A stretch of DNA of 64,000 bases from Candidatus Marinacidobacterales bacterium (lineage in GTDB: Bacteria > Acidobacteriota > Vicinamibacteria > Marinacidobacterales > SMYC01), in NCBI GenBank assembly GCA_965237955.1, contig OZ250169.1, positions 3,552,001 to 3,616,000 on the forward strand, written 5' to 3'. The notes below the pieces were generated by a model. It made no database searches. It was not told the origin of the DNA and saw nothing but the letters and a program-made list of their open reading frames with translations. The translations under genes were made by a program, and so were the position numbers. Positions 39,221 through 41,378 of this stretch are shown here, piece by piece; the stretch's first letter is position 1, and every line of letters starts with the position of its first letter.

Positions 39221-39883
39221 ATGTCGGACGACACTCATTGGCAGAGATCGCTCATAGTCTCCGGGTATTTCGACGAACCAGTCTTTAAGCTATCTCAGAG
39301 TAGTCACACTCTTCAAAGCGCTCTCTTCAAGACGCTGAAACCATATGGGTTGCTTCTCGACGGTATACAGGAGGTCGGTGCATATTCCGGACCATCGGGA
39401 TGGTCGCTGTCCATGCGCTTTCTACAGTACGCAGCGCAGCTGCAGTTGTCGGTACAACGCTATGAACTAAATATTCGAACGCTCCCGGAGAGTGCCCCAA
39501 TTGCAGACCAGGGTACGATTTTGTCGGCGATCGAGGAAACCGTAGGAAAGGAAATCACTCCCGTCGAGGTGGCAAAACGCGAAGTCGCGCTCCACACGCA
39601 CTACAAAGTCCGCCCGGCCTTCACCATTGAAGAGAAATTTGGCGTTACCGCCTCCGACTCGCTGGGAACCGTCGATGGTGCCGCCATCAGTCTACAATTG
39701 CAGGATCCTTTGATCGATGGCGGCGTCACAGTCTCTTTTGACCGCTCCGTGCTCTACGAAAACGCGGTCTTCGTAACGGTCGGAGGCGCCTTCGACGCAC
39801 GACAACGCGCGCCGCACGAAAGTGTCGACAACCTCACGACTTTCTTATCGAGAGTGGTCGACTTCATCGAGGAGAACGAGTAG
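39221..39883 (+). CDS. Hypothetical protein, 220 aa (possible TIGR04255/SecB-like fold)
   Basis: AGGAGG RBS before ATG 39221; alternating strand/helix pattern; fold is inference. Confidence 0.65.
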   Translation: MSDDTHWQRSLIVSGYFDEPVFKLSQSSHTLQSALFKTLKPYGLLLDGIQEVGAYSGPSGWSLSMRFLQYAAQLQLSVQRYELNIRTLPESAPIADQGTILSAIEETVGKEITPVEVAKREVALHTHYKVRPAFTIEEKFGVTASDSLGTVDGAAISLQLQDPLIDGGVTVSFDRSVLYENAVFVTVGGAFDARQRAPHESVDNLTTFLSRVVDFIEENE

Positions 39884-39884
39884 C

Positions 39885-40856
39885 GTGTCTTCCCAAGCAC
39901 TGCGGCAAAGCGCCCTCCACGCGCTTCAGCACCCGCCCATAGCAGCGTTTGGAAATCCCGGTGTCTTTATGCGCGAAGCACGGTCGGGATCGCAAGCTCC
40001 GTTTGCCAAAAGTCACCGTCGTTTCGATACAGATACTTGTTCTCTCCAAAGTGCGATTGTTTCGTGGAAGCAGACGAAGGCTTTCCAGGAGTGCCTTCGA
40101 GCTTCAAGCGCCGCCGTCGCCAAGCCGCTGTCCGTCATTCACGAAGGCTATCTGGCTTCATTCGCCGAGTTCCACGAACAACGGCAGGCGTTTGCTACGT
40201 TGGGTGAGAAAGTGAGCGAGGCTGCAAGAACATCGGCAGCCTTGCTACGTCGCTTGGACGTTGGTGCTGAACCGACCCGACTGGGCCAATTGGAAATAAC
40301 GCAGCAAACTTGGTTCGATGCAATTAGTCGAGCGATCGACTTTAGTCAGTTTGAGCGGGCCGCATCCGAAATGGCCAAGTTCGCCGCACGAGCTACTTTC
40401 GACCAAATCGTAGAGCCGTCGGCTAACGAGGCTGTGCGCCGCGAGTCCGACTCTATGTTTGCCAGAGCACTGAGCGAAGATCTGCAGGACGGCGTCGAAA
40501 CGGAATTCTCCGAATCCCTGAATGATCTCGTTAAAATGCACGGAGAGAGCGCCATCGATGCGATCGGGCGCACGATCGCTTCTGCGCGATTCAGCGCCCT
40601 TGTGTGCGCAGAGGCGCTGAAATACCTTGGCGAGATCGATGACGATGTGGCTCGCTCTTCACGGCTGGAACTGTTAGCTCAAAGCCTCCAGAATTCTTCC
40701 CCAGCGATCCGCGACGGTGCCTCAGTGGGGATAGCTTTATTGGATGATCCCATAGCAATCGAACCCCTGAAGAGCGCCATTGAGGCTGAGTCGTGTCTTG
40801 CACTCAAAGAGGACATGTCTCTCGTCCTCCAACAACTAGAGCAACGCGACGCATAG
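39885..40856 (+). CDS. Protein with C-terminal HEAT-like repeats
   Basis: GTG 1 bp after the upstream stop with GAGGAG RBS; LQNSSPAIRDGASVGIALLDDPIAIEPLKSAIEAE. Confidence 0.7.
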   Translation: MSSQALRQSALHALQHPPIAAFGNPGVFMREARSGSQAPFAKSHRRFDTDTCSLQSAIVSWKQTKAFQECLRASSAAVAKPLSVIHEGYLASFAEFHEQRQAFATLGEKVSEAARTSAALLRRLDVGAEPTRLGQLEITQQTWFDAISRAIDFSQFERAASEMAKFAARATFDQIVEPSANEAVRRESDSMFARALSEDLQDGVETEFSESLNDLVKMHGESAIDAIGRTIASARFSALVCAEALKYLGEIDDDVARSSRLELLAQSLQNSSPAIRDGASVGIALLDDPIAIEPLKSAIEAESCLALKEDMSLVLQQLEQRDA

Positions 40857-41378
40857 GTGCCGTTCTTACTGAGAGCGATAAGAAAGAACCGCTGGCGGCC
40901 TGAATTGCCGACGTGGCTCGGTACGGACGATGTCCCCGCGGATCCTCTGGGGGATCTCTCCACCCTGGAGAACAAGCTCTCGGTTTGGTATGTGGACGGC
41001 GCACAACAAAACCTTGAGCGAGTTTCAGCAGCTCTTGCAGCTGGACGCGAGAAAATCGACAAACTTGACTACGCATTGATCGACATCGACACGCTGACCC
41101 GCCTCGGCATTGAGTACGAACAAACTCCTGGTGAATCGCCCGACGACCACGCAAACGAGAACTGGCACTATGACTTACACAGGCTCTCTGGGAAAGCACT
41201 CACAAGCCTGGCGAAAGCGATTCTGCCGCGGACCGAGAGCCGGGCTCGATTACTCCCGAAGAAGGTCACGGAATTGATCAAGGCGGGCCTCAGCAATGCG
41301 GAGTTGGACTCCGGGAAATTGAAGCCGGAAGTACGAAAGAAAGTATCTTGTGCATCATCAATATCCGTCCGCTCCTGA
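40857..41378 (+). CDS. Putative ADP-ribosyltransferase toxin (CmdT-like)
   Basis: FLLR6, ADPLGDLSTLENKLS42VW44, TPGESP, WHYDL; abuts the upstream stop. Confidence 0.6.
   Translation: MPFLLRAIRKNRWRPELPTWLGTDDVPADPLGDLSTLENKLSVWYVDGAQQNLERVSAALAAGREKIDKLDYALIDIDTLTRLGIEYEQTPGESPDDHANENWHYDLHRLSGKALTSLAKAILPRTESRARLLPKKVTELIKAGLSNAELDSGKLKPEVRKKVSCASSISVRS

Follow-up and report, generated by a model that had tools for sequence, protein, structure and literature searches.

A recurrent three-gene operon from an acidobacterial genome as a candidate helper-antitoxin-toxin system with a predicted ADP-ribosyltransferase-fold effector

What does a compact three-gene operon do when it lies beside gene remnants in the genome of a Candidatus Marinacidobacterales bacterium? 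The operon occupies positions 39221 to 41378 of the window, by which we mean the whole 64,000-nucleotide stretch analysed (GCA_965237955.1, contig OZ250169.1, positions 3,552,001 to 3,616,000, forward strand), and a sequence-only reading had taken it for a candidate toxin-antitoxin-chaperone (TAC) defence system ending in a toxin like CmdT of the CmdTAC system. We find that the cassette recurs as a conserved, mobile operon, that its first gene is exchanged between different toxin-type modules, and that its third open reading frame (ORF) is predicted to encode an NAD-using enzyme of the ADP-ribosyltransferase (ART) fold, of a type different from CmdT. With somewhat better than even confidence, we favor a back-to-front helper-antitoxin-toxin system, in which ORF3 would be an NAD-using toxin, the HEAT domain of ORF2 its inhibitor, and ORF1 a stabilizer and sensor acting via the ORF2 extension. 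The parts of the cassette are these:

39221..39883, plus strand: ORF1, 220 aa, ATG start, AGGAGG 4 nt upstream; unnamed family, proposed helper/sensor
39885-40856, plus strand: ORF2, 323 aa, GTG start
39885..40406, plus strand: N-terminal extension of ORF2, roughly residues 1-174, hypervariable in sequence and proposed to correspond to a chaperone-addiction element
40407..40856, plus strand: C-terminal HEAT-like helical domain of ORF2, proposed antitoxin domain
40857-41378, plus strand: ORF3, 173 aa, GTG start
40857..41339, plus strand: ORF3 core, a predicted ART-fold domain (residues 1-132) with two C-terminal helices, proposed toxin
40872-40874, 40980-40982 and 41166-41168, plus strand: ORF3 residues R6, S42 and H104, the conserved R-S-H set
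41340..41378, plus strand: foreign 3' tail of ORF3, from alignment with relatives L001 and L002 (L and G numbers are our own handles)

The coordinates and frames of the three coupled genes are as first read, with gaps of 1 bp between ORF1 and ORF2 and 0 bp between ORF2 and ORF3, and a genome search finds a single copy of the cassette in the source genome. The three closest relatives, L001-L003, match the window at about 90%, and only over 39189-41339. The cassette had been called intact, which holds insofar as all three frames are open, but not for the 3' end of ORF3: similarity stops at 41339, where the relatives' last two residues and stop are swapped for a foreign tail, and ORF3 has 173 aa instead of 163 because the frame runs into foreign DNA beside a multi-copy insertion sequence. 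Pairwise ratios of nonsynonymous to synonymous substitution (dN/dS) against L001/L002 are 0.34/0.33 for ORF3 and 0.28/0.30 for the ORF2 C-domain, both of which are under purifying selection, and 0.92/0.96 for the ORF2 N-terminus and 0.72/0.81 for ORF1. L001 and L003 belong to one related genome with two cassette copies, one having a 5'-truncated first gene.

Recurrence was followed in a sample of at least 140 loci, made up of 14 from genomes, 6 from genome searches and at least 120 from metagenomes (selected by DNA pattern). With the window's own two entries set aside, an ORF3 homologue is present in 137 of the listed loci, and the ORF2 domain lies immediately upstream of it in 77 of the 82 listed loci with at least 600 bp of upstream sequence. 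Four of the five misses, viewed by eye, carry divergent (L018, L067) or degraded (L073/L097) versions of ORF2. ORF3 homologues are sporadic in the phylum, where 5 of 401 genomes carry one, and also turn up in Deltaproteobacteria, KSB1 and Planctomycetota records. A 7.5-kb Acinetobacter plasmid and a 4.4-kb Klebsiella plasmid each have a three-gene cassette as their main cargo, and in the temperate phage Ab105-1phi it follows a gene annotated 'secretion activator', which we take to be a lysin. Genes 2 and 3 of these plasmid and phage cassettes are homologous to ORF2 and ORF3; profile comparison detects no link between their gene 1 (226-231 aa) and window ORF1. The DNA pattern of ORF3 found nothing in viral contigs, and phage records gave none with window ORF3 as query and three with its Acinetobacter homologue. 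The three genes thus occur together elsewhere, and the order proposed at the outset recurs in distant lineages. Because this order is kept at such distances, and because ORF3 and the ORF2 C-domain are under purifying selection, the cassette is more than a chance arrangement.

What kind of protein is ORF3? Its model has a predicted local distance difference test score (pLDDT) of 96.4 (an earlier model from 10 sequences, with pLDDT 57, was set aside as poor), and all ten of its top structural matches belong to the ART superfamily, the best being Tpt1, in line with the ART fold that had been suggested. Foldseek searches against PDB and viral models returned no match at E<=0.001. The residues first pointed out (R6, S42, W44 and a late H104-Y105-D106) are all present, and over 150 sequences R6 is conserved in 91%, S42 in 100%, H104 in 100% and Y105 in 17%; W13, W20, W44 and W103 are conserved aromatics in the same set. 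The Arg, Ser and His fall on the first, second and a late core strand, which is the Tse2-type ART pattern, the equivalence being drawn from strand order, and a Tse2-like R-S-H pocket is predicted. Pfam, PADLOC and NCBIfam give nothing over cut-off for the three window ORFs, PADLOC 2.0 (which should include models for CmdTAC, or PD-T4-9) giving no match at E<=0.1, and Pfam and PADLOC give only scattered single matches, none consistent, for 150 ORF3 relatives. Ankyrin-repeat matches of the ORF3 profile among PDB sequences were rejected because they summed several weak stretches. The label 'CmdT-like' is not supported by these comparisons: CmdT is described as a diphtheria-toxin type enzyme with an H-Y-[EDQ] triad and catalytic Y41 (PMC11618068), whereas the ORF3 family conserves R-S-H. 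This family is large and unannotated, with 2,719 representatives at 50% identity.

ORF2 had been read as a long N-terminus plus HEAT repeats and is indeed a variable extension followed by a HEAT-like domain, in tight linkage with ORF3. The domain takes up the C-terminal 149 residues, keeps D-G, EAL and RDGA motifs over 63 sequences, and matches HEAT_2 below cut-off in the window (E 0.0078) and over cut-off in two of three homologues tested. The extensions of homologues (26-153 aa) are unalignable, often close with an S/T-rich motif, and are judged disordered from composition and variability. In nine homologues (L010, L011, L014, L026, L033, L049, L056, L085, L092) the extension contains a hydrophobic stretch and then an arginine run, with an E-S-S-T-like motif immediately before the HEAT domain. 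At L050 a deletion has apparently joined the beginning of a TIGR04255 gene to the HEAT domain; L087 has the intact arrangement.

The first gene differs between loci. ORF1 has no Pfam, PADLOC or NCBIfam match; its Atlas neighbors are unnamed clusters of about 220 aa (score 0.94, with a caution flag on recognition), and a homologue at G402 has 27% identity (E 2.4e-25). It had been proposed to be a double-length SecB/TIGR04255-like protein. In homologous loci the first slot does hold TIGR04255 or TIGR04255-fold proteins, but window ORF1 itself matches neither the TIGR04255 hidden Markov model (HMM; threshold, a score over 30 bits) nor a three-member profile, and the two halves of its alignment do not match each other in a low-sensitivity test for an internal SecB repeat. 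Across the 52 listed loci with 1,700 bp upstream, 36 have a family of about 258 aa in this slot, 3 the window ORF1 family and 13 neither; these last comprise 3 bona fide TIGR04255 proteins that pass the HMM threshold (L023, L087, L091), 2 other proteins of 230-260 aa, 1 fused remnant and about 7 loci without a first gene. Some 45 of the 52 therefore have a 220-260-aa first gene or its remnant, mostly coupled by a 4-bp overlap, and such an overlap is usual at the ORF2 start where both first genes are present. A predicted structure from the 258-aa family (P0259) matches a TIGR04255 cluster at TM 0.60/0.73. Profile comparison among the window ORF1 family, TIGR04255, the 258-aa family and the plasmid first genes finds no link above background, and PDB sequence searches with both first-gene families, including the ORF1 family profile, find no match.

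Where else does the ORF1 family occur? Genome searches with ORF1 gave nine distant matches, one cut by a contig end, one false (L158, rejected as ATP synthase gamma by eye) and seven usable. In these seven of nine the next gene pairs a long, variable N-terminal region with a short C-terminal part that is conserved, and what follows differs: a confirmed PIN/VapC gene at G402, G369 and G221; an aspartyl-protease-like gene (labeled by eye) at G410 and G604, after a gene with a confirmed DUF5678 domain; and a HEPN-like gene at G726 and G122, a label given by eye and unconfirmed by Pfam or PDB. A second search round, across 401 genomes of the class, turned up the family in 27. Viewed by eye, its 19 new loci show 16 with a DUF5678-like second gene, one HEPN-like module and two unclear cases; a variable-N-terminus second gene again follows the shared first gene in 17 of the 19, which are mostly one family and not independent. 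The first gene is exchanged between different toxin-type modules. None of these distant loci has the HEAT/ART pair, and the window lineage therefore looks like a graft of a first gene onto a HEAT/ART module. Alongside this, L153, L154, L166 and L169-L183 show an operon of an ORF1-family gene, a variable N-terminus with DUF5678 and a retroviral-type aspartyl-protease-like gene, several of the protease genes being broken by insertions; we found no paper that couples DUF5678 to a toxin. At L156, L157 and L167 an ORF1-family gene and a variable-N-terminus gene precede a HEPN-like gene encoding 136-151 aa, a label likewise unconfirmed by Pfam or PDB.

The surroundings of the cassette bear on a role in defense. 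A PADLOC scan of 150 of 178 neighboring ORFs, in 27 of 33 long loci and without a background control, gave matches at eight neighbor loci, of which we judge four clear (L001, PD-Lambda-5; L005, a type I restriction-modification (RM) system plus AbiEi; L058, HEC-02; L064, type IIG RM), one possible (L006, TIR/CHAT) and three unspecific. Support for a defense role is thus moderate. In the closest relative 1.1 kb separates the cassette from the two-gene PD-Lambda-5 system on its downstream side (L001:6596-9003). The flanks in the window hold the following, and the two remnants had been recognized as such:

38134..38385, plus strand: UvrD helicase remnant, outside the cassette; partial match to PF00580 positions 202-262 of 271, E 1.6e-18
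38527..38856, plus strand: ResIII/hsdR-like remnant, outside the cassette; partial match to PF04851 positions 3-49 of 164, E 5.3e-13
41381..42560, plus strand: multi-copy insertion sequence directly downstream of the cassette, from blast copies in the genome

Adjacency to the hsdR and UvrD remnants is not conserved, because nothing outside 39189-41339 matches L001-L003. The insertion sequence has at least 16 full-length genomic copies at >=99% among the 25 matches listed (31 blast pieces overall). Insertion-sequence and integrase-core genes, labeled by eye, are dense around the cassette (35152-36141, 41381-43915, 47773-48849). Apparently upstream of the UvrD remnant, at 36675-38078, is a reverse transcriptase of 467 aa, by eye of the group II intron type and with 8 blast pieces genome-wide. 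On the minus strand at 44257-47098 are three coupled genes of 327, 527 and 134 aa, possibly another defense or membrane module; glycine-rich hydrophobic stretches mark the 327- and 527-aa products, and the third is weakly TerB/DUF533-like.

How might such a cassette work? On the reading we favor, the HEAT-like domain of ORF2 would bind and block ORF3, a predicted NAD-consuming toxin, by analogy with TAC systems, and ORF1 would hold the variable N-terminal extension of ORF2, making it a stabilizer and probably a phage sensor. A phage protein might then displace the extension from ORF1, ORF2 would be lost, and freed ORF3 could arrest the infected cell by ADP-ribosylating some target, possibly RNA, or by consuming NAD. 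We offer more tentatively, at rather less than even odds, the generalization to a widespread, anti-phage, mirror-image class of TAC systems, in which TIGR04255-fold chaperone-sensors would hold N-terminal antitoxin extensions and control toxins that can be swapped; in this cassette the toxin would come from a new R-S-H ADP-ribosyltransferase family numbering thousands and be blocked by a HEAT-repeat antitoxin.

It is also possible, though unlikely, that ORF2 and ORF3 are an ordinary type II toxin-antitoxin pair serving plasmid or island maintenance or stress, with ORF1 a co-transcribed accessory that neither stabilizes nor senses. The loci without a first gene, the lack of a profile link between window ORF1 and the usual first gene, carriage on small plasmids, which fits addiction, and the scarcity of defense neighbors all speak for this; the retention of a tightly overlapping first gene or its remnant in most loci, and the presence of ORF1 relatives in the same slot before unrelated modules whose second genes have long N-terminal additions, speak against it. 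Quite improbable in our judgment is that ORF3 is a non-toxic, Tpt1-type enzyme of NAD-dependent repair or signaling, or else an exported toxin against which ORF2 gives immunity and which ORF1 helps to export. Tpt1 is the best structural match, Tse2 is a secreted effector, and ORF2 homologues L010, L011, L026 and L092 have a hydrophobic stretch in the extension, but the sporadic distribution in the phylum, mobile carriage and interchange with PIN/VapC modules fit such an enzyme poorly, and we noticed no secretion genes on the small plasmids. A reordered, divergent CmdTAC member, in which ORF3 would ADP-ribosylate mRNA and ORF1 would be a SecB-like chaperone sensing capsid, shares the ART fold, the three-gene toxin-antitoxin-helper logic and the conserved aromatics; we consider it very unlikely given R-S-H in place of H-Y-[EDQ], the poorly conserved Y105, the absence of consistent PADLOC matches, and an ORF2 layout opposite to that of CmdA, which has two N-terminal helices and a disordered C-terminus ending LAA (PMC11618068).

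If the helper-antitoxin-toxin reading is true, it would assign functions to a large ART-fold family that lacks annotation and to TIGR04255, an orphan fold with no known role, and chaperone-gated toxin-antitoxin immunity would have a second, reversed layout. Because compact homologues exist on gammaproteobacterial plasmids and in a temperate phage, the cassette is directly testable in laboratory Escherichia coli, and a tractable R-S-H enzyme could help settle the chemistry of Tse2-type ART folds.

How does the cassette compare with systems already known? It is likely undescribed so far: our literature search found no description, subscription papers and defense-screen supplements, which could list a homologue, falling outside it, and the available portions of PMC9846239 and PMC3710099 hold nothing relevant to it. 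Tse2-Tsi2 of Pseudomonas aeruginosa (PDB 5ako) differs in that Tse2 is an effector delivered by type VI secretion, whereas ORF3 sits in a toxin-antitoxin-type operon and has two extra C-terminal helices; phmmer and profile searches against PDB sequences, and Pfam, find no sequence homology between them. Unlike the toxins of Xre-RES pairs (ParT, MbcT, VPA0770) and DarTG, ORF3 has no RES or DarT family match, its partner is HEAT-like instead of Xre or a macrodomain, and there is an extra first gene. CmdTAC resembles the cassette in its three genes, ART-fold effector, proposed helper partner, carriage on prophage-type elements, and middle gene with a long, poorly conserved extension. Yet the window runs helper-antitoxin-toxin, not toxin-antitoxin-chaperone; the ORF2 extension is N-terminal and its HEAT-like C-terminus ends RDA, whereas the CmdTAC antitoxin has a C-terminal disordered element with an Ala-Ala degron; and the helper here, of 220-260 aa, is only possibly SecB-like, window ORF1 having no match in Pfam or NCBIfam. 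Because triad (CmdT being compared by its published description), gene order and antitoxin layout all differ, the cassette falls outside CmdTAC. The hallmark of TAC systems (bioRxiv 10.1101/2024.02.24.581848) is a helper common to unrelated toxin-antitoxin modules, with a C-terminal antitoxin extension and a SecB-like chaperone. Here the order and the side of the extension are reversed, the helpers belong to TIGR04255 or unnamed families, and the modules are HEAT/ART, VapB-like/PIN, HEPN-like and DUF5678/protease-like. As in HigBAC and MqsRAC, however, the helper is common to unrelated modules with extended antitoxins and the toxins are modular, and by this analogy the cassette plausibly works like a TAC system.
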